Below the pieces are notes generated by a model that was given only the letters and a program-made list of their open reading frames with translations, was not told the origin of the DNA and searched no databases. From IMG/VR virus record IMGVR_UViG_2585427757_000006: DNA of 64,000 nucleotides, one strand, 5' to 3'. Made by a program: the position numbers and the translations under genes. The stretch's first letter is position 1. The number at the start of each line of letters is the position of its first letter. This stretch comes from a virus. Its lineage: Duplodnaviria; Heunggongvirae; Uroviricota; Caudoviricetes. Below, piece after piece: positions 1-48,609 of the stretch.

Positions 1-1830
<1,830 letters not shown>

Positions 1831-2059
1831 TGACCAATAGCGGACATTAAAAATGGCGAAAAACGGCCAATAATCTTGGCGTTGACAGTGTTACGGGGGA
1901 TAAAATCAGGAGTTGAATAAATACGAAAAAGGAGGCGACACCCCTCCTTCCCTCCCCACTTATACATACCTGGCTTCTTCGCTATACATGTTGTGTTTTA
2001 TCTGTCTCAACCTCTCTATAGGCGTTAATGCTCACTCCTTCCAGAACGTTCTATACGGC

Positions 2060-2830
2060 GACTATTTCTGTTGGTGAATTGGGTGTGTTGTTCTCTCTGT
2101 CGGTGTATGTGGTTTCGTTCGTTTTGCGGTGGTTCTTCTATGGGGTGTTCTCGTCGTTTTGGTGATTGTTCTTCTCCGTGTATGGAGTAATGGCAGGGGG
2201 GCGATTCCTTTCGTTGTTGTGTTTGAGTTGTTTGTCTGGAGTGTGTGAAAGGCTTTTGCAGTTATTCGTGTATTGGGTAATGGCATTTCCCGTGATTGTT
2301 GTGTTTCGTGTCTTTTGGGATTGAGAGAAACCTTGCGGTTACAGGCTTCGTTGGGGTTTCAGTGATTCTGGTGTTCTTCGCTGTTTGGGGAATGGCGTGT
2401 CGTGGGTATCGCGCGTATGAATGTTTTCGGATTGCCTGTGAAAGTTAGGTTGGTTGTCCGGTAGCCTGGGGAGAAGAGGTGGGTCTTTTCGGTAGCCTGG
2501 GGAGAAGAGGTGGGTCTTTTCGGTAGCCTGCCATAAAGAGGTTGGTTGTTTTTGGAAATGGCATTTGTGTTATTTAGTTGTTTTGTTATGCCTGAAAATA
2601 AGTTGTTTATATGGTTGTGTAACGCAACGGGAGCGATTTTGAGCGTGTGTTTTTGTTGGTAGTGTGTTGGGTCGTCTGTGGTGAAAATTGGACGCTGTGG
2701 CGCTGTCTGCTGCGTAGAGTTACGGGTATAAGCAGTGATGTGTGAAAACGTCAATTTTTTAGACCAAATCGGGTGAAAGCGTTGATGTTTCGTTGATCTG
2801 TTATTCAGTTGTTTTCTTGATTGTATAAAC
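2060..2830. repeat. G+T-skewed tract without credible coding potential, with degenerate ~90-115 bp periodic units
   Basis: Plus strand almost only G and T. Cores gtaatggca at 2187 and 2277, aatggcg at 2391, aatggca at 2557. The units gtgtatggagtaatggca and gtgtattgggtaatggca are clearly homologous. Only low-complexity minus-strand ORFs. Confidence 0.6.
2459..2530 (+). repeat. Perfect 31-bp tandem repeat, 2.3 copies
   Basis: cggtagcctggggagaagaggtgggtctttt at 2459-2489 and 2490-2520, then cggtagcctg at 2521-2530. Confidence 0.95.
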
Positions 2831-2963
2831 AACTATAGCTTATTGATATTTAAGGATGTGATTGCGGGTATGGAAGAAGAGTAGTGGCGATCAACGGATT
2901 CTTATAGAAAAGAATCAAATTGTGACCGCCATTATCAACTGATTGATTTGTTTACTTGTGTAG

Positions 2964-3362
2964 TCAGTTCTCGAAATGAATAGGGTCAACGTAATGCCGC
3001 TCACCGCTTTTACCATTACACAGCACTGTAACTTTCGCCTTTTCACTCCAGGCTGAGTATAGAAAGTTCCCATCAGGTTGAACATGGTAACGAGAGAAGT
3101 AAACATCGCCGACTGAGGCGTCGAACATGTTCCTATCTTTTTCACTTTGGGCAAGCGAGATGGATATCACCGAATTCCCATTTGGGGAAACGATTTTAAA
3201 TTTATTCCCTATATCCATAACAATATTGTAACCAGGTAATTGCTTGTGTGTTTCCGGATCTATTTTCATGCATCGTGGGTACACGATAGTGTTAGGCTCT
3301 TCAACTGGCGTGGCATTAGCAGAAAGCACAAAAAATATTAGTGCCAATGGTGCATATTTCAT
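2964..3362 (-). CDS. Hypothetical secreted protein (132 aa)
   Basis: N-terminal signal-like MKYAPLALIFFVLSANA. SD gaggg 6 nt upstream of the ATG at 3362. Confidence 0.6.
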   Translation of the reverse strand: MKYAPLALIFFVLSANATPVEEPNTIVYPRCMKIDPETHKQLPGYNIVMDIGNKFKIVSPNGNSVISISLAQSEKDRNMFDASVGDVYFSRYHVQPDGNFLYSAWSEKAKVTVLCNGKSGERHYVDPIHFEN

Positions 3363-3369
3363 TTATCCC

Positions 3370-3663
3370 TCACAATTTCCAATTTTCCAGACCATCGTCT
3401 ATTTCAGCGTCAGGGTGGAATTGTACCGCATCAAATCCTACATCGAGCACCTTTCGAATGTTCTTGATGGTTTGCTATGTGACACCGTAATCACGCAGCT
3501 TTTCTTCCCTCCCCTGACTCCCCCATACTCCGTTTCTGTACCCAATTGAGTCCGAGATTGTATGGTGCTCGAAACAGATATTTGGTAGACACTCAGAGTC
3601 ATGCTGTGTAACGAGGGTAGGGCTACTAACTGTCGTCTTATACAATTTGGTGAGTTTCAGCAT
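3370..3663 (-). pseudogene. Small ORF interrupted by an in-frame TAG (62 + 34 codons)
   Basis: ORF 3475..3663 ends at TAG (plus cta 3475-3477). The same frame stays open 34 more codons (QTIKNIRKVLDVGFDAVQFHPDAEIDDGLENWKL) to TGA at 3370-3372, just before the next gene's SD. Confidence 0.45.
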
Positions 3664-3905
3664 TTTACCACCCCGTTCGGAAACAACTCATTCGCCGTAG
3701 TTGATATAACCTCCCAATTAACGCCGACATCAGCGTTATGGCATTGTCTGATTTTTTGCATCACCTGTACGCATTGTTCATCAGTGAGATCTGTCCTTAC
3801 TTCAGCAATATCTTCTTTGTGCCACATAACCATGAGTAAGGGTTCGTCTTCTGGATAGTTTTTCAGTTTCTCGATGATTTCTTTTGCTGTTCCAAACATC
3901 TTCAT
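3657..3905 (-). CDS. Hypothetical protein (82 aa)
   Basis: SD aggag directly upstream of the ATG at 3905. 7-nt overlap with the downstream ORF start (3663). Preceded by the operator-like palindrome. Confidence 0.55.
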   Translation of the reverse strand: MKMFGTAKEIIEKLKNYPEDEPLLMVMWHKEDIAEVRTDLTDEQCVQVMQKIRQCHNADVGVNWEVISTTANELFPNGVVKC

Positions 3906-3910
3906 CTCCT

Positions 3911-3979
3911 AAACAATTTGTTTTCTTATATGACTTATTATCTCAATCAACAAAAGGTAGAAAACAAATTGTTTTAGAG
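3911..3979. promoter_or_regulatory. Two copies of the AAACAA-N-TTGTTT palindrome (family A)
   Basis: aaacaatttgttttcttata 3911-3930 and gaaaacaaattgttttagag 3960-3979. The first ends 5 nt before the SD of gene 3657..3905. Confidence 0.5.
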
Positions 3980-4010
3980 TTTGTTAAAGTCAGAAGGGGT
4001 TGTGTCTATA

Positions 4011-4039
4011 TGAAAATGCCCGGCGTGTTGCCGGGCATT
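4011..4039 (-). terminator. metG intrinsic terminator
   Basis: Stem aatgcccggc / gccgggcatt (4015-4024 / 4030-4039) with loop gtgtt, followed on the minus strand by tttTc; 20 nt after the metG stop. Confidence 0.7.
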
Positions 4040-4058
4040 GCGAAGAGAGGGTGTTTAA

Positions 4059-6092
4059 TTACTTAACCTGGTGGCCAGGTTTAGCACCAGCATCCGGGCT
4101 TAACAGGAAGATATCTTTCCCCCCGGGGCCAGCAGCCATTACCATGCCTTCGGAGATACCAAAGCGCATTTTACGCGGTGCCAGGTTGGCCACCATAATG
4201 GTGTGACGCCCGATCAGTGCCTGCGGATCTGGGTAGGCAGAACGAATACCGGAGAAGACATTGCGTTTTTCACCACCGAGATCCAGCGTCAGGCGAAGCA
4301 GTTTGTCAGAACCTTCTACAAACTCTGCGTTTTCAATCAGCGCCACGCGCAGGTCAACTTTGGCGAAGTCGTCAAAGGTGATAGTTTCCTGAATCGGGTC
4401 GTCAGCCAGTGGGCCAGTTACCGGTGCGGCTGTGGCTTTCACTTCTTCTTTGGATGCTTCCACCAGTGCTTCAACCTGCTTCATATCGATGCGGTTATAC
4501 AGTGCCTTGAACGGATTCACTTTATGGCCCAGCAGCGGTTGCTGGATACCATCCCAGGTCAGTTCTGTATTCAGGAATGCTTCTGCACGTTCAGTCAGTT
4601 TCGGCAGTACCGGTTTCAGGTACGTCATCAGCACGCGGAACAGGTTAATGCCCATAGAGCAAATCGCCTGCAGATCGGCATCGCGTCCTTCCTGCTTTGC
4701 CACCACCCACGGAGCCTGTTCATCAACATAGCGGTTAGCCAGGTCAGCCAGTGCCATGATTTCACGGATAGCTTTGCCAAATTCGCGGCTTTCCCATGCT
4801 TCGCCAATCACTTCAGCGGCATCAGTAAAGGTTTTGTACAGTTGCGGGTCAGCCAGTTCGCTTGCCAGCACGCCGTCAAAACGCTTGTTGATAAAGCCTG
4901 CATTACGGGAGGCCAGGTTAACCACTTTGTTAACGATATCGGCATTCACACGCTGAACGAAATCTTCCAGGTTGAGATCGATATCATCAATGCGCGAAGA
5001 GAGTTTCGCAGTGTAGTAGTAACGCAGGCTGTCGGCGTCAAAATGATTCAGCCAGGTGCTGGCTTTAATAAAGGTGCCGCGAGACTTGGACATCTTCGCG
5101 CCGTTCACCGTCACATAGCCGTGAACAAACAGGTTGGTCGGCTTGCGGAAGTTGCTGCCTTCCAGCATGGCAGGCCAGAACAGGCTGTGGAAGTAAACGA
5201 TATCTTTGCCGATGAAGTGGTACAGCTCGGCGGTGGAGTCTTTCTTCCAGTATTCGTCGAAGCTGGTAGTGTCGCCGCGTTTGTCGCACAGATTCTTGAA
5301 GGAACCCATGTAGCCAATCGGCGCGTCCAGCCAGACGTAGAAGTATTTGCCCGGTGCGTTCGGAATTTCAAAACCGAAGTAAGGTGCGTCACGGGAGATA
5401 TCCCACTGTTGCAGGCCAGATTCAAACCACTCCTGCATTTTGTTTGCCACCTGCTCCTGCAACGCACCGCTGCGGGTCCATGCCTGCAACATTTCGCTGA
5501 AAGAAGGCAGATCAAAGAAGAAGTGTTCGGAATCACGCATTACCGGTGTAGCGCCAGAAACCACTGATTTCGGCTCGATCAGTTCCGTCGGGCTGTATGT
5601 CGCGCCGCAGACTTCACAGTTATCGCCGTATTGATCCGGCGCTTTACATTTCGGGCATGTGCCTTTTACAAAACGGTCCGGCAGGAACATGCCTTTTTCC
5701 GGGTCGTACAGCTGAGAGATGGTGCGGTTTTTAATAAAACCGTTCTCTTTCAGGCGAGTATAGATAAGCTCGGACAACTGACGGTTCTCTTCGCTGTGCG
5801 TCGAGTGATAGTTGTCATAGCTGATGTTAAAGCCTGCGAAATCAGTCTGATGTTCCTGACTCATTTCGCCAATCATCTGTTCCGGTGTGATACCAAGCTG
5901 CTGTGCTTTCAGCATGATTGGCGTACCGTGGGCATCGTCGGCACAGATGAAATTAACCTCGTGGCCGCGCATTCGCTGGTAACGAACCCAGACATCAGCC
6001 TGGATGTGCTCCAGCATATGGCCGAGGTGGATTGAGCCGTTAGCGTACGGCAGCGCGCACGTCACCAGAATTTTCTTCGCGACTTGGGTCAT
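4059..6092 (-). CDS. metG: Methionyl-tRNA synthetase (677 aa from [25 protein letters not shown])
   Basis: HIGH (HLGH) and KMSKS motifs, Zn knuckle CPKCK..CEVCG. Near-identical to E. coli MetG as recalled. The track ORF has a 43-codon upstream extension; ATG taken at 6092. Confidence 0.97.
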
Positions 6093-6249
6093 AGTAGGCA
6101 TTACTTCTTTGTAGTGAAAAGGGGCTTGATAGTAACAAAATGGCCTTATGTCTGCCATGTGATAACAGCATTTCTCATAAATGATTAAATGTCGTAGCTG
6201 GAGTACACTACAAGGCGACAATTGCGCAAATTAAAATAAAGGAGACGGG

Positions 6250-7350
6250 ATGAGCGAGTCCAAATCGCCGGATGCCCTGAGAGCAATGGTAGCCGGTACG
6301 CTGGCTAATTTTCAGCACCCAACCCTGAAACACAACCTGACTACGCTTAAAGCGTTACACCATGTTGCGTTGATGGATGACACACTGCATGTCGAACTAA
6401 TCATGCCTTTCGTGTGGAATAAGCCTTTTGAAGACCTGAAAGAGCAATGTAGTGGTGATCTGCTCCGTATCACTGGCGCAAAGGCTATTGACTGGAAGCT
6501 GTCGTACAACATTGCCACGCTTAAGCGCGTCAAAAACCAACCAGGCATTAATGGCGTTAAGAACATTATCGCCGTCAGCTCAGGCAAGGGCGGCGTGGGT
6601 AAATCCTCCACGGCGGTAAACCTGGCACTGGCGTTGGCTGCTGAAGGTGCGAAAGTTGGTATTTTGGATGCCGATATCTATGGTCCATCAATTCCAACCA
6701 TGCTGGGCGCGGAAAACCAACGTCCAACCTCACCGGACGGTACTCACATGGCACCTATCATGTCTCATGGCCTGGCAACCAACTCTATTGGTTATCTGGT
6801 CACCGACGACAATGCAATGGTGTGGCGTGGACCGATGGCCAGCAAGGCGCTGATGCAGATGTTGCAGGAAACACTGTGGCCTGATCTGGACTATCTCGTT
6901 CTCGATATGCCACCGGGCACTGGTGATATTCAATTGACGCTGGCGCAGAACATTCCTGTAACTGGTGCGGTTGTGGTAACTACGCCGCAAGACATCGCGC
7001 TGATCGATGCGAAGAAAGGCATTGTGATGTTCGAAAAAGTCGAAGTGCCGGTACTGGGTATCGTTGAAAACATGAGTGTGCATATTTGCAGTAACTGCGG
7101 TCATCACGAGCCAATTTTTGGCACCGGTGGCGCACAGAAACTGGCCGAGAAATACAACACGCAGTTGTTAGGCCAAATGCCACTTCATATCTCTCTTCGT
7201 GAAGATCTGGATAACGGAACACCAACCGTTATTAGTCGTCCAGATAGTGAATTTACGGCTATTTATCGTGACCTCGCAGATCGCGTTGCTGCCCAAATGT
7301 ATTGGCAAGGTGAAGTAATACCTGGCGAAATCGCATTCCGCGCAGTGTGA
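6250..7350 (+). CDS. apbC: Fe-S cluster carrier ATPase ApbC/Mrp
   Basis: [11 protein letters not shown]-loop and the CSNCGHH motif. Collinear with E. coli Mrp as recalled; divergent from metG as in E. coli. Confidence 0.95.
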
Positions 7351-7356
7351 TAAAAA

Positions 7357-7486
7357 GGTGGTGCTTTTGCCGTTACGCACCCCCCCGTCAGTAGCTGAAC
7401 AGGAGGGACAGCTGATAGAAACAGAAGCCACTGGAGCACCTCAAAAACACCATCATACACTAAATCAGTAAGTTGGCAGCATCACC
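7357..7486 (-). mobile_element. IS1 left-end fragment (~130 bp, truncated)
   Basis: Reverse complement of IS1 IRL ggtgatgctgccaacttactgat (7486-7464) plus the insA start at 7431. ORF 7168..7431 begins [16 protein letters not shown], the InsA N-terminus, then runs into antisense apbC. Confidence 0.85.
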
Positions 7487-7597
7487 GAGCGCCAGCGGCG
7501 AACATATGAGCTTCGGAAATACTAGACATTCTTAACTCCGTTGTTTTCTAGTTGTGGTTATTTTCACAAATAAGAAAAGATAGAAAACAATTTATTT

Positions 7598-7618
7598 AAG
7601 GCCACAACTTATGGCCTT
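7598..7618. terminator. Hairpin downstream of gene 7649..8029
   Basis: aaggcca caactta tggcctt with A/T-rich flanks. Orientation and function uncertain. Confidence 0.4.
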
Positions 7619-7648
7619 TATTTATTCATGCCGAAGGATTTGTAGCGT

Positions 7649-8029
7649 CTAATTGCCGGATAAAATGGGGTGAGGTGCTTGCCAGTAGGCTCCACCGTTC
7701 CATGTGAACCCCATGCGAATAAGAGTGTTTATTGCGGCTTTGGTAGACTCCGATTCGACACTGGCTTTACGAAACTCTTGAACCTCTTTCGCCAACTTGT
7801 ATGTAATTGTGCAGGGGACGATTGCAGCCCAGCCTTTCTCATGACTGTTAATGACCATCTGGATGTGACCATCCAGAATAGGTTGATTAGGCATGTTATT
7901 GAAAATGTCTGCCTGTTTTTGAATGTGAAGAAAAAGCCTTGCCAGCGCCATTTGCTCACTACGAGACAAGGGATTATCAAGAGGGCTTTTTGCAAAAGCT
8001 GCTATACGCTGTGCATCAATGCCAAACAT
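7649..8029 (-). CDS. Hypothetical protein (126 aa)
   Basis: Long ORF whose start codon shares one nt with the stop of the upstream gene (8029). No motif recognised. Confidence 0.6.
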   Translation of the reverse strand: MFGIDAQRIAAFAKSPLDNPLSRSEQMALARLFLHIQKQADIFNNMPNQPILDGHIQMVINSHEKGWAAIVPCTITYKLAKEVQEFRKASVESESTKAAINTLIRMGFTWNGGAYWQAPHPILSGN

Positions 8030-8733
8030 CAGCGCACCTCACCATCTTTATGGCTGGAGTTAACTTCCGTCATTAAATGTCTGACGTAATCGACAAGAGA
8101 GCCGCCTGGTGGAATCTGGCATTCCTCAACTAACTGGAAGTAGATATCCGCTGCATTACGTGTATTGCTACCCGCGCATATTCTTTCTTCCCGAAGTGCA
8201 TGAAGCTCGTTGATCAAACGGTCACACTCTCCGTTACGCTGATCCACAACGGCCTCAAGCTCTGCGACGCGTTCACCTGGCGTCTTACCTTCTTTGCGTT
8301 GGATGGTAACGACGAAATCGCCAATTGCAGGGACGTTGTAATCCAGCTCAAGGTAGTTTTTGGCACCGCTGCGGACGAACTCACCCGCGAACATGGTGGC
8401 GAACATCGCAGAGGCCACTTCTCCGTTGAAAAGTGACTCCAGATCTAACGGAGTCCCGGCAGCAAGAGCCTCCTTTGCTGTATCCATTGCATCCATGAAC
8501 CGATCAAACTCACTAGCGCGCTTTTCCAGGTCTTTCCATTGCTCGCTCCAACGTTTGGCAACGAAGTCTATGAATGTTTTCGCGGATTCATCAAAATTCC
8601 CCTCAAACTTAACGATGCCTTTATCAATAATGATCTGGCCTACCGCATCCTCTGCATAACCTTTCAATGTAAACTTGAAAGGAAAATCGGAATGGCCTGT
8701 GACGTTAAAATGCTCTAACTGGAGGTTGCTCAT
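8029..8733 (-). CDS. Hypothetical protein (234 aa)
   Basis: Starts in the conserved leader (plus catgtgttttt at 8731). No motif recognised. Confidence 0.65.
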   Translation of the reverse strand: MSNLQLEHFNVTGHSDFPFKFTLKGYAEDAVGQIIIDKGIVKFEGNFDESAKTFIDFVAKRWSEQWKDLEKRASEFDRFMDAMDTAKEALAAGTPLDLESLFNGEVASAMFATMFAGEFVRSGAKNYLELDYNVPAIGDFVVTIQRKEGKTPGERVAELEAVVDQRNGECDRLINELHALREERICAGSNTRNAADIYFQLVEECQIPPGGSLVDYVRHLMTEVNSSHKDGEVR

Positions 8734-8794
8734 GTGTTTTTCTCTTATCGTTTAGTAACTACATTCTTACATAAATTAAGTAAGCATTTACCTA

Positions 8795-10480
8795 TCATTT
8801 AACGCGTTTGAAAACGTATACGCTGACTGTGATCCCTGTGTCTTCAAACTCGTTGGTAAACGACTTCCCTCTGGCATAAACGTAATTATCCATCGTCATC
8901 CAGTCCAGTATTGGCGCAGTGCCCGGCAATACTGCTACAAGACGCCCGCCGACTTTCAGATGCCCCAGCGCAGCCAGCGTGTGCTCTCTATGACGACCAA
9001 GCGAGTACGGCGGGTTCATAACGATTTTGTCGAACTGATAACCTGCGTTGTCCTCAGACCACTTTATGAAGTCGCAGCAAATCGTGTTCGTATACCCTTT
9101 TCCACGCAGGATATCAGCGAAGAGAGGTGCGATTTCTATGCAGGTAACATCTTCCAGATCGGCGTCAATATAGGCCAGAAGATCCCCACGTCCGGCTTGA
9201 GGCTCCAACAGCTTCTCACCAGGCTTCAATTCAGTGGCTCTTGCAACGTACTCAGCAATCAAGCGTGGGGTAGGGTAGAACTGGTGTGATTTTGTATCCG
9301 GTATTAAACCGGTAGCCACAATCGTATTTAGCGTATGGCCGATGTCATACGGGAACTGCCAGTGCTTTTTCTCCTGCACGCCGCCAATGAAGCTCAGTGT
9401 GCGCTCAAGCTCTTCCACCTGCGACTTCTGGAGAGCTGAATCAGAGAAGTACCATACACCTTTGTCTTTGCTCAATCGCCCGTCACGAAGCGCAGTGCGA
9501 ACCGGCACGGAGATCGTCTTCTGGATTAAACCGAACTGCTTTGGTGCCCGTGTTTTTGGCGCAGTTCGGCATGGCGCGGGGATTGCAGCAGGCATACTGT
9601 AAGCCAGCACCTCATTCAACTTCCAGGCCACGTCAGGATGTATTTCAAAGTGAACGTTGCCGTTCTTGAACATCTTCACGCGCATCAGATTTCCATCGAC
9701 GTTCATCCAGTCACCGGTCTGGCAGTCGTTTGCCCGATACGCAGCTGATAGCACCTCAGCAGTGCGGTTGATGGTAATAAATTCTTTGTGCGCGAAGAAA
9801 TGAAGCAAGACACGCAGATCGTCGATGTAGTCCTCTTTGCGATAGTTCACGCTAACGCTGTCCCGCCAGAAATCAGAAATGCAGTCAGCGATTATCAGCC
9901 GCTCGCTGAAACCATTTGTCTTATTTGTCTTGTGCACAGGACTCAGCGCCTTAAACAAGCCATACACGCGCTCAGAGAGATATTTGTGCCTGTCATTCAG
10001 CAAATTAAGCATCGTGGGTATGACCGTTTCTGCTTTGAACTCCGGTACACCAACGAACTCTTTAACCTTCATCTGGTAGCCGGTTCTGTCAGTTTTGATG
10101 ACTTCCTGTTTGCCCTCTATAAACTGCTCGCGCCACTCATCTCGACGGGAAGCTGGCATGATCAGCAAAACGTTAGTCATGTCCGTGACCTTCCTCCAGT
10201 ACTCGGCCCAAATATTCTGTTTCACCCATTCCAGATCGACTTTATCCAACCAACCTCGATTTAAACGCGAGCGATCTTCATCTGGTCGATGGTTTAGTCT
10301 CAGCAGGCGATTAATCATGTTGTGGCGTTCGTCGCCATAAACGAAGTCGTGTACCTGATACATGAAGGCGATCTCTTTCTCGCACTCGGCCACAATTTCG
10401 TGGATAACGTTCATTTCCTGACGATAATCGATAGCAGTGTTTGAGCTGGCATCGTCGATGATGGAAAGGGCTGTATTCAT
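8795..10480 (-). CDS. N6-adenine DNA methyltransferase with a large N-terminal domain of unknown function (561 aa)
   Basis: C-terminal motif I LEPQAGRGDL and motif IV VMNPPYS. The first ~370 aa carry no recognised motif. Confidence 0.8.
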   Translation of the reverse strand: MNTALSIIDDASSNTAIDYRQEMNVIHEIVAECEKEIAFMYQVHDFVYGDERHNMINRLLRLNHRPDEDRSRLNRGWLDKVDLEWVKQNIWAEYWRKVTDMTNVLLIMPASRRDEWREQFIEGKQEVIKTDRTGYQMKVKEFVGVPEFKAETVIPTMLNLLNDRHKYLSERVYGLFKALSPVHKTNKTNGFSERLIIADCISDFWRDSVSVNYRKEDYIDDLRVLLHFFAHKEFITINRTAEVLSAAYRANDCQTGDWMNVDGNLMRVKMFKNGNVHFEIHPDVAWKLNEVLAYSMPAAIPAPCRTAPKTRAPKQFGLIQKTISVPVRTALRDGRLSKDKGVWYFSDSALQKSQVEELERTLSFIGGVQEKKHWQFPYDIGHTLNTIVATGLIPDTKSHQFYPTPRLIAEYVARATELKPGEKLLEPQAGRGDLLAYIDADLEDVTCIEIAPLFADILRGKGYTNTICCDFIKWSEDNAGYQFDKIVMNPPYSLGRHREHTLAALGHLKVGGRLVAVLPGTAPILDWMTMDNYVYARGKSFTNEFEDTGITVSVYVFKRVK

Positions 10481-11204: not shown

Positions 11205-11225
11205 TTAAACAAGTTGTTTTCTTAT
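11205..11225. promoter_or_regulatory. Representative family A palindrome
   Basis: ttaaacaagttgttttcttat, about 17 nt upstream of the ATG at 11188. Confidence 0.5.
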
Positions 11226-29163: not shown

Positions 29164-29417
29164 GTGTTTTTCCTTTGTGGTTATTTTGATACAAATTTTA
29201 AGAGCAATGAGAAGGTAAACAACTATGCATAACGGTATGTTAGGAATGAAACGAGCGTCTTAATATACAAAACTTATAAGTAAGTATATACCTATTTATT
29301 GTGGCGCAACTTTGCTTGTCTGTATGACTAAAAATAAGACAGGATCACTGTAGAACGCTATGAGAGCTATTTTGAGGAGGCGTAGATTCTATCTACGCCA
29401 ATATACGATCTGGAGGG

Positions 29418-48561: not shown

Positions 48562-48609
48562 TTCTAAGACTCACTAAACAAATTGTTTTCTTATCTTATA
48601 AATTAATTC

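Follow-up and report, generated by a model that had tools for sequence, protein, structure and literature searches.

Why does a mobile genetic element carry almost a kilobase of strand-asymmetric DNA with no credible protein-coding capacity? The question is posed by a 64,000-nucleotide stretch of viral DNA (IMG/VR record IMGVR_UViG_2585427757_000006), referred to here as the window. Between positions 2050 and 2860 its plus strand is rich in G and T, and we call this stretch the tract. From position 1888 onwards, sequence searches matched the window to E. coli plasmids of ~110 kb with 95–99.6% identity. The same sequence also matched Escherichia phage Cyrano, Salmonella phage SSU5, Salmonella Typhi pHCM2, and SSU5-like elements of Klebsiella and Enterobacter. 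Because of these matches, we assign the window to the SSU5/pHCM2 type of phage-plasmid, in this instance with apparently captured metG and apbC genes. Most likely, the minus strand of the tract specifies an untranslated, structure-free RNA rich in C and A. Our tentative preference is for a non-coding unit, read on the sense strand, that would work in cis to terminate or attenuate transcription between cargo and control genes with the help of a factor, probably Rho. We commit to a cis-acting unit on the sense strand because of the Rho-like composition of the RNA, the position of a hairpin and the orientation of a recurrent motif.

The plus strand of the tract consists of 16% A, 13% C, 32% G and 39% T (71% G+T). 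Here, 500-bp windows reach a G+T fraction of 0.73, while the mean over all 64 kb is 0.504 (standard deviation 0.034). Only those starting at 1901–2501 deviate from that mean by more than 0.12. A previous sequence-only reading had placed the start of the asymmetry at 1950; the asymmetric stretch itself is confirmed but the skew proper starts near 2050. In 200-bp windows starting at 2101–2601, plus-strand GC skew is +0.43 to +0.58. Dinucleotide alternation of the kind associated with Z-DNA is absent from the tract. The core of the C/A-rich sequence spans 1966–2725 on the minus strand; this composition is shared by the window and all relatives, whose tracts have roughly A 0.39, C 0.32, G 0.13–0.17 and T 0.14–0.16 on this strand. 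The core has no conserved open reading frame (ORF) and is nearly unable to self-pair.

The sequence-only reading had also found no credible ORF, and this holds. The longest open stretches are low-complexity runs on the minus strand. They shift in frame and position between the window and its relatives (L001 and L003–L008), and none is conserved. Stop codons are infrequent on the minus strand because this strand is poor in G and U. Neither a period-3 signal nor lag-3 autocorrelation was detected in the tract. Start codons (AUG, GUG and UUG) are scarce, with 2–5 ATG and 0–1 GTG per tract, and motifs resembling a Shine–Dalgarno (SD) sequence are few. The predicted folding energy of the minus-strand RNA is −171 kcal/mol for 991 nt, versus −267 kcal/mol for the plus strand. 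A G/U-rich RNA from the plus strand, an option in the sequence-only reading, has no specific support, and a structured form of it was rejected; the fold is no better than that of shuffled sequences (z +1.2). Searches of Rfam 15 gave no match with E ≤ 1 for positions 1–8000 of the window. For an intact relative, only chance-level Rfam matches were obtained (E 1.3–9.8; 16–20 bits versus gathering scores of 38–80).

Positions 1–1887 are the right part of an insertion sequence (IS) of the IS21 family on the plus strand. The ORF list places istA at 17–1036, cut by the start of the window, and istB at 1033–1830. The right end of IS21, at 1887/1888, falls inside a conserved non-coding region, and matches to relatives free of the IS begin exactly at 1888. 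In those relatives the region is an intact gap of ~1.4–1.6 kb with no gene annotated in RefSeq, for example at 7482–9046 of relative L001 (window coordinates equal L001 coordinates minus 6113). The tract forms the right two-thirds of this gap, and the IS21 insertion point lies between the tract and C-rich repeats. Because IS21 interrupts the region, its left third is outside the window, to the left. In relatives without the IS, this third contains C-rich GCCGTTTCCC arrays and one Chi site. The sequence-only reading had offered the tract as a decayed target of IS21 and had proposed a BLASTn comparison. That comparison finds the same tract in the same place in elements without IS21, inside an intact, unannotated gap of ~1.5 kb. 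Hence, the tract is not IS debris; IS21 was inserted into a region that was already there.

Conservation is wide. We find the tract in 859 plasmids, and also in SSU5-like phages, from Escherichia, Salmonella, Enterobacter, Klebsiella, Citrobacter and Cronobacter, and its location never differs. In 183 E. coli genomes and 200 plasmids, matches cover at least 80% of the query. A G+T content of 65–80% extends over 0.65–0.85 kb in SSU5, Cyrano, Enterobacter, pHCM2, Klebsiella and pEc1675. We collected 59 further loci by means of a neighbouring protein; one lineage among them has only ~50% identity in that protein and ~47% in the tract. In 54 of the 59, the gene-sense strand is approximately A 0.39, C 0.32, G 0.15 and T 0.14; in the other five the tract is interrupted or cut by a contig end. 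Across lineages the sense-strand fractions stay within.38–.41 for A,.30–.33 for C,.12–.17 for G and.12–.16 for T, even at ~47% identity. Sequence between the motifs described below evolves about as fast as flanking DNA. Between motifs, composition rather than sequence is conserved. In the 108-kb Cyrano genome the tract (94.3–95.3 kb) sits at the cumulative GC-skew maximum and is the only kilobase with a strongly negative gene-sense GC skew (−0.32). Tract fragments in large Klebsiella plasmids are remnants flanked by ISs and offer no functional clue. We found no description of the region in the literature on non-coding RNAs, origins or packaging sites of SSU5 and pHCM2.

Polymorphism points to the minus strand as the strand under selection. 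Among minor alleles in three lineages, sense-strand sites with majority C and minority T number 63, versus 23 for T to C. Similarly, A or C changes to G or T at 121 sites, versus 76 in the opposite direction. Because the minor-allele spectrum runs away from C, and from A and C together, it indicates that C-richness is maintained by selection against mutation and is not produced by mutation. We also considered that the skew might be the deamination footprint of an exposed, D-loop-like plus strand. This was rejected, as the spectrum runs the opposite way. A test for an excess of A↔C transversions showed that transitions dominate in the tract as they do in its flanks.

Nearly all genes of this SSU5-type element run on the minus strand, the same direction as the predicted tract transcript. 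The gene upstream in this sense varies among relatives and has its stop codon at 2964. Between this stop codon and the tract lies a hairpin, which we name K (2885–2931, minus strand). It consists of an outer stem, TGGCGATCA/TGACCGCCA, and an inner stem, GATTCTT/AAGAATC, and it folds in 35 sequence variants. The loop, TTTCTATAAG in the sense direction (also written UUUCUAUAAG), is invariant. The inner stem differs by lineage yet stays paired. As read from the sequence, the outer stem of three lineages has G·U when taken on the minus strand and A·C when taken on the plus strand.

A second helix brackets the core. Its 5′ arm (sense CUUAUAC, plus-strand GTATAAG; 2726–2732) pairs with a 3′ arm (sense GUAUAAG, plus-strand CTTATAC; 1959–1965). 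All seven pairs are present in each of 25 distinct sequences. Two pairs change on both sides, one being UA in 21, CG in 3 and UG in 1, the other CG in 17, UA in 7 and UG in 1. In each case the intermediate is a U·G pair if the minus strand is read; read on the plus strand, it would be A·C. Beyond the helix, a terminator scan (8065–8039 in L001) identified a hairpin resembling an intrinsic terminator, GGGAAGGAGGGGTGTCGCCTCC then TTTTTCGTATTTATT, at 1916–1952 on the minus strand. This hairpin and its U-rich tail are present after the tract in the E. coli and Klebsiella lineages and marginal in L045.

The upstream edge of the tract belongs to a leader family of the element. The motif AAGAAAACA(A)nTTGTTT occurs six times in the window (1.1 would be expected), always on the minus strand, and Cyrano has 11 copies on its sense strand. 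We compared its layout in the window, Cyrano, SSU5, Klebsiella and the divergent lineage L066. Typically, it lies ~8–9 nt after a −10 element of the GATAAT type and 30–50 nt before the SD sequence and ATG of real genes, which include ParA, DUF1380 and small operon genes. The full signature reads (TTGTTTTCT...) GATAAT, ~9 nt, AAGAAAACAAnTTGTTT, then SD and ATG. It is found on the minus strand of the window at 2810–2818, 3919–3927, 11215–11223 and 48584–48592, and in Cyrano at 29255, 58591, 81274, 93161, 95797, 97936 and 98421. At the tract (2810–2837, minus strand), AAGAAAACA at 2818→2810 is preceded by the −10-like hexamer TATAGT at 2837→2832, and the predicted sense start point is near 2820–2826. 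This member of the family is followed by no ORF.

Two further blocks are conserved within and beside the tract. A second leader-like module at 2577–2612 (minus strand) consists of palindrome-like AAACAAnTTATTT and then AACAAAACAAC, and stands out as a conserved block in the alignment. At its position SSU5, Klebsiella and L066 have AAACAAnTTGTTT, 8–10 nt and A(A/G)GAAAACA. Palindrome AAACAAnTTGTTT looks like the operator of a single repressor. Because of this resemblance, the leader family is probably a regulon of the phage-plasmid. The other block, at 2744–2798, is highly conserved in the alignment, including L066. Its half-site, CGTTGAY, is arranged in inverted pairs: GAAAACGTCAA and GTTGATGTTTC, separated by 27 nt, form an inverted repeat, and CGTTGATC is present once more. 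Since the arms are conserved rather than covarying, and the type of mismatch differs by lineage, the CGTTGAY repeat is more likely to be a DNA operator than an RNA stem.

Short motifs recur in the tract. The sequence-only reading had described a core at four places. GWAATGGCR is indeed present at 2187, 2277 and 2555 but the site near 2391 reads GGAATGGCG and departs from the pattern. Over the whole window there are nine copies of GWAATGGCR versus 2.4 expected. On the minus strand the sites fit the family GCC[AGT]TT[ATC]C[CT]C, with sense sequences GCCATTACTC (2185–2194), GCCATTACCC (2275–2284) and GCCATTCCCC (2387–2396). A degenerate fourth site, GCCATTTCCA (2553–2562), aligns with GGGTAATGGC in relatives. 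A degenerate ~100-bp periodicity had also been claimed, and this was not borne out; when identity was scanned lag by lag, lag 31 alone rose above shuffled sequences, and nothing near 100 did in any lineage. What recurs is a motif of 10–20 nt at irregular spacings of ~90–170 bp.

In Cyrano, nine of the ten copies of GCC[AGT]TT[ATC]C[CT]C fall within 94.6–99.1 kb. Four have one orientation and lie in the tract; five have the opposite orientation and lie in two arrays. Five lineages share this layout. In every lineage, the tract has GCCnTTnCCC on its sense strand and the two arrays have it on the opposite one, where they are 35–39% C. Between the tract and the arrays is a conserved centre block, GTGTTACGGGGGATAAAATCAGGAGTTGAATAAATACG (1888–1925), whose columns are kept in E. 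coli, SSU5, Enterobacter, pHCM2 and Klebsiella and are partly recognisable in L066. Because of these orientations, RNA transcribed in the direction of the centre block would always contain the motif. One of the SSU5 arrays comes after a plus-strand gene without an intrinsic terminator.

Downstream of the tract, in the minus-strand sense, intact relatives have six sites of the GCCGTTTCCC type, located on the other strand, followed by a Chi site and the promoter of an operon of five to seven small genes without assigned function. A second, smaller array is at the far end of the operon, so that both arrays flank it. In L001 the arrays are on the plus strand at 7840–7990 (six copies) and 4707–4790 (three to four copies), with a spacing of 22–30 bp. 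Each is near a Chi site (7643–7650 and 4796–4803, respectively). Searches of PHROG, Pfam and PDB with the neighbouring small proteins gave no informative homologue beyond the FljA family.

These features suggest how the tract may work. Transcription would run on the minus strand from ~2825 down to ~1916. It would begin at a weak copy of the element's own promoter and leader, comprising the −10-like hexamer and AAGAAAACA with neither ribosome-binding site nor ORF. The predicted body of ~0.76 kb, ~40% A and 32% C with few G or U, could be neither folded nor translated. It would be closed by the 7-bp helix CUUAUAC...GUAUAAG, and the transcript would end at the intrinsic terminator in the E. coli and Klebsiella lineages. 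Such C-rich, G-poor and unstructured RNA may constitute a very large Rho-utilisation (rut) zone. This zone would keep transcription from the variable cargo region, and from the tract's own weak promoter, out of the control region and small-gene operon unless termination is relieved. The termination signal would include GCCnUUnCCC, which occurs on the strand that is transcribed in the direction of the centre block. We infer both Rho as the factor and insulation or attenuation as the purpose.

The composition is what Rho would require. Rho sites have more C than G over at least ~80 nt; the sense strand has C at 0.30–0.33 versus G at 0.12–0.17 over 510–830 nt in every lineage, and a C/G ratio of ~2–2.5 over more than 650 nt. 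They also have little structure and no translation, in line with the folding energy of −171 kcal/mol per 991 nt, the few start codons and the lack of a conserved ORF.

Public strand-specific RNA sequencing (RNA-seq) data are available for E. coli LF82, which carries Cyrano (PMC9928086, S1 Table). The table lists a sense pseudo-ORF, CYRAN_103, that lies inside the tract. In lysogeny broth, CYRAN_103 was at 0 fragments per kilobase per million (FPKM), whereas the upstream CYRAN_102 was at ~45–59 FPKM (PMC9928086). In macrophage conditions CYRAN_103 was at 2–14 FPKM, the value of ~14 being from one MB6 replicate (PMC9928086). Genes with family promoters (ParA and CYRAN_87, 101, 105, 110 and 111) rose in the same conditions (PMC9928086). 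RNA abundance collapses at the end of the cargo region, just before the tract and near the putatively protective hairpin K, which is compatible with termination. The small-gene operon uses its own promoter, because it rises without a matching rise in the tract. We conclude that tract RNA is made at most weakly or transiently in the lysogen. This qualifies the C/A-rich long non-coding RNA suggested by the sequence-only reading; the leader motif, helix, terminator and selection for C favour it but RNA-seq shows almost none in a lysogen.

Several observations weigh against a Rho-dependent terminator or attenuator. Rho sites in the literature are ~100 nt long, so the model does not account for a length of 0.76 kb. 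Rho has no need of so much A and so little U. The motif sites, 31-nt units and CGTTGAY repeats look like protein-binding sites, for which the Rho model has no use. The −10 element at the tract is degenerate in all lineages (TATAGT in the window; CAATTA, CATAAC and GCAATA in others), and a scan for sigma-70 consensus promoters at the tract found none. The terminator after the tract is absent from SSU5 and from the divergent L066. Covariation of the bracket helix amounts to only about two independent exchanges, and shuffle controls on the whole structure were not decisive. Finally, a 7-bp helix closing a 760-nt loop is thermodynamically marginal.

Some of these observations would fit better with a site that works as DNA. 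In this alternative, which we consider rather unlikely, the tract and arrays are a cis-acting assembly region for a putative sequence-specific DNA-binding protein. Variants include a lytic replication origin, a polar barrier to forks or transcription, and a packaging or partition site, with opposed GCCnTTnCCC sites flanking the centre block. The clustering of nine of ten Cyrano copies within 4.4 kb, in opposed orientation and with the same layout in five lineages, argues for it. So does the motif itself, whose two variable positions coincide in both sets of sites, as expected for a protein site. The spacing of 22–30 bp in the arrays, the CGTTGAY inverted pairs with their conserved arms and the location of the tract at the GC-skew maximum point the same way. 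The element also encodes T4-like UvsW and UvsY and gp32-like and RecA-like replication and recombination proteins. The 31-bp units add to this, as they correspond to ~three helical turns and copies recur ~3.3 kb away.

The 31-bp repeat was first noted in the sequence-only reading, as an exact tandem duplication at 2459–2530. Tandem Repeats Finder confirmed it, with 2.3 copies at 100% identity, or 2.8 copies counting a degenerate one. Of the three units (plus-strand CGGTAGCCTGGGGAGAAGAGGTGGGTCTTTT; annotated on the minus strand, 2459–2551), two are exact and the third is degenerate. In the alignment with seven relatives, two units lie in tandem. The proposed recent expansion was borne out by copy number across relatives, in which units bearing GGTAGCCTG number one to three. 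Most close relatives have two and some have one; three are present in the window, in the 99.6%-identical plasmid pSJC33-2, in L022 and in one Klebsiella locus. The expansion is real but minor, a copy-number polymorphism among isolates.

Extra copies of the 31-nt unit (CGGTAGCCTG, 5 nt, AAGAGGTGGGT, TTTT) lie ~3.3 kb to the left of the tract in SSU5, Klebsiella and some E. coli lineages. Their positions are 4860–4960 in L003, ~190–290 in L007 and, as the reverse complement, ~3900–5000 in L034 and L048. A Chi site adjoins them in SSU5, Enterobacter and Klebsiella, and they are absent from L001-type elements. The start of the unit, CGGTAGCCTG, may be related to the RfaH ops element, GGCGGTAGnnTG, which it matches at 9 of 12 positions. 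On the G/T-rich strand, this ops-like sequence is non-template only for rightward transcription, and the divergent lineage has AGGTAGCC instead. Another short resemblance is at 2213–2225, where plus-strand GTTGTTGTGTTTG is presumably identical to a 13-nt stretch of the G/U-rich R1 region of the sRNA GcvB. Because of this identity, minus-strand RNA would be complementary to GcvB. GTTGTTGTGTTTG is present only in the E. coli lineage, and the match is probably a by-product of composition.

A DNA-level site leaves a good deal unaccounted for. It does not explain why ~650–830 bp between and around the sites keep an A/C-only composition at ~47% identity, nor does it explain selection for C, the covarying hairpin or the bracket helix. 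The array of protein-binding sites that the sequence-only reading envisaged may exist; GCCnTTnCCC is clustered and recurs on the other strand in the arrays but the composition between sites is unexplained. Iterons shared with RepA were rejected because the motif is absent near repA. The repA gene and its intergenic region are ~33 kb away, the gap contains no DnaA box and the small proteins encoded nearby have no initiator match in Pfam or PDB. No initiator, terminase or ParB gene is adjacent. In Cyrano, ParA is at 29.3 kb, terS and terL are at 0.1–2 kb and ParB-like genes are at 105 kb, while the tract is at 94.3–95.3 kb. The tract is internal in all deposited linear phage records. Furthermore, IS21 insertion between arrays and tract is tolerated, at least in the plasmid state.

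The sense-strand evidence is also compatible with an RNA that acts in trans, an explanation that we regard as doubtful. Here, a decoy or scaffold RNA would accumulate when family promoters are derepressed, in stress or lytic induction, and titrate a factor that binds single-stranded RNA. Candidates for the factor are Rho or a protein recognising GCCAUUACCC, such as the FljA-family, Sm-like protein encoded ~5.5 kb away. Three to five copies of a conserved motif in an otherwise fast-evolving, unstructured RNA would suit such a role, and the sense signal of the tract climbs from 0 to ~14 FPKM where genes with family promoters rise. Precedents are CrcZ and CrcY, which sponge Hfq through CA motifs, and the prophage anti-sRNA AgvB. 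Against this, a sponge must be abundant and the tract RNA is near-absent in every published condition (at most ~14 FPKM). Hallmarks of sponges for Hfq/Crc or CsrA are also missing. The motif (ARN)4 occurs once, versus 0.8–1.7 times in shuffles (five lineages), so (ARN)n Hfq motifs are not enriched; motifs of the GGA type are rare, with none of the GGA sites that a CsrA sponge would offer. The untranslated, C-rich RNA would itself be open to shortening by Rho.

The FljA homologue deserves separate mention. FljA is an RNA-binding repressor of flagellin translation. The gene (1948–2472 of L001, plus strand; ~5.5 kb left of the tract) is present in every SSU5-like element examined and is syntenic in L003–L072. 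Its product matches Pfam Flag1_repress (E 1.5e-84) and, weakly and at the C-terminus, Hfq/Sm-like proteins (E 7e-4). Synteny in all lineages examined, down to 33–41% identity, would be in keeping with a functional link to the tract. Among otherwise close E. coli elements the protein falls into classes of 100%, 79% and 67% identity, and this variation (67–100%) occurs while the motif is unchanged, which speaks against recognition of the motif. Mimicry of the fliC leader, the known target of FljA, was tried because of the homologue nearby and was rejected. A 9-nt identity, ACCCAATAC, is at chance level; local alignment scores of 18–20 compare with shuffle means of 18.5–18.9 in five lineages, the leader having been verified in more than 3,000 genomes. 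It is improbable, in a stronger form of the same idea, that the tract is a dedicated gene for a ~0.85 kb RNA, built almost only of A and C and switched on with the shared regulon. Such a structure-free RNA would be a trans-acting decoy for Rho or another single-stranded RNA-binding factor, reprogramming termination and RNA fate at the switch from plasmid to phage. The factor would possibly be the element's own FljA/Sm-like protein, acting through GCCAUUACCC sites.

Very unlikely, in our estimate, is an R-loop or D-loop zone. A G/U-rich plus-strand transcript, or nascent DNA, from left of the centre block would invade the tract and prime lytic replication, with the G+T skew marking the displaced single strand, by analogy with T4 R-loop origins, ColE1 RNA II and the mitochondrial D-loop. 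For rightward transcription, the plus-strand skew (+0.43 to +0.58) does lie in the R-loop-prone direction. UvsW, the R-loop helicase of T4, is encoded nearby. L066 has a promoter-like site pointing into the arrays and tract (TTGACA, 16 nt, TG-CAGAAT), and a plus strand left exposed to C→T and A→G deamination would become richer in G+T, as the tract is. However, polymorphism is dominated by minus-strand C>T changes, which wear the skew down. U-rich RNA gives weak rU:dA hybrids, the tract is not purine-skewed and plus-strand RNA folds no better than shuffles (z +1.2). Both helix intermediates would be A·C mismatches on the plus strand, and neither the E. coli nor the SSU5 lineage has a conserved plus-strand promoter.

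It is barely credible that the tract is non-functional, as IS-generated junk, a decayed gene or a compositional artefact; the lack of database annotation and of an Rfam match, and the flank-like evolutionary rate between motifs, would be expected of such sequence but the tract is present in IS-free relatives and all lineages, keeps its composition and architecture at ~47% identity, has structural elements that covary and shows an excess of composition-eroding minor alleles that implies purifying selection.

Other parts of the element drew our attention. At 4059–7350 the window contains a full-length gene for methionyl-tRNA synthetase (metG) and divergent apbC/mrp, arranged as on the E. coli chromosome; an IS1 remnant adjoins this block in relatives. 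It looks like a captured chromosomal block inside a variable cargo region. Chi (GCTGGTGG) occurs ten times in the whole window versus 1.6 expected, on both strands and without enrichment inside the tract. This density is unusually high for a mobile element that encodes its own RecA/UvsX-, UvsY-, gp32- and SbcCD-like proteins. To the left of the small-gene operon, at 4300–4620 of L001, is an AT-rich convergent intergenic region. Its features are repeated AACGCG/GCGC motifs, a single DnaA-box-like TTTTTCACA and a perfect inverted repeat of 10 bp (CATAATCACA, 17 nt, TGTGATTATG). We regard it as a further candidate for a site that works in cis, perhaps an origin.

Clinical Enterobacteriaceae commonly carry phage-plasmids of the SSU5/pHCM2 type, in which resistance and other cargo genes adjoin the region described here. 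Control of lysis, lysogeny and replication in these elements is essentially uncharacterised. Our analysis defines a conserved 1.5-kb non-coding control region, a common promoter and leader signature, and an element under selection at the level of composition. As a giant Rho-loading insulator, the tract would show how transcription of cargo on a mobile element is kept apart from the element's control circuits. As a decoy RNA or a replication element, it would represent a new type of phage regulatory device; a decoy, in particular, would be a new kind of phage RNA.

How does the tract compare with known systems? R-loop origins (ColE1 RNA II; T4 oriF and oriG) and the mitochondrial D-loop share strong asymmetry beside a repeat-rich control region, and a UvsW-type helicase is encoded. 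However, polymorphism, helix intermediates and promoter-like signals all indicate the opposite strand, and the hybrid stability of G/U-rich RNA is a poor fit. The RNAs of type III toxin–antitoxin systems (ToxI-like) also have tandem direct repeats, comparable to the 31-nt units in a putative non-coding transcript, and vary in copy number. Here, by contrast, there are only one to three units in a much longer tract, and no gene for a ToxN/AbiE-type endoribonuclease follows. On the minus strand the tract is followed by the terminator and, beyond it, by the IS or the arrays; the small proteins encoded downstream have no ToxN-like domain.

Iteron origins and opposed polar arrays (P1 incC/incA, T4 oriE, Tus–Ter, RTP and P1 pac) are closer in some respects. 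They too have clusters of direct repeats of a non-palindromic site of ~10 bp, two oppositely oriented groups around a conserved centre and an array spacing of 22–31 bp. They differ in that the sites of the tract are 90–170 bp apart in strand-asymmetric DNA, with no DnaA boxes and no adjacent gene for an initiator, terminase or contrahelicase. We know of no P1, lambda, RK2 or Ter site that the motif resembles. Sponge RNAs (Pseudomonas CrcZ and CrcY; CsrB and CsrC; AgvB) likewise carry several copies of a short motif in an A/C-rich context and, for AgvB, belong to a mobile element. Unlike them, the tract lacks GGA, is not enriched in (ARN)n or AANAANAA, is two to eight times longer, is essentially silent in the lysogen and matches no Rfam family.

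Rho-dependent terminators, such as lambda tR1 with rutA and rutB beside nutR, share more with the tract. The predicted RNA of the tract is C-rich, G-poor, unstructured and untranslated, and a gene lies upstream of it. A stable hairpin in front of it could mark a processed 3′ end, and RNA abundance collapses in vivo in LF82. The C/A flavour resembles that of lambda rut sequences. The tract differs in being ~ten times longer than a typical rut site, in having A-richness and U-poverty beyond the requirement of Rho, and in possessing its own promoter-like leader, bracket helix, repeated motifs and tandem 31-nt units. If the tentatively preferred Rho-dependent reading is right, the tract would be an extreme and elaborated form of a rut-type termination zone.

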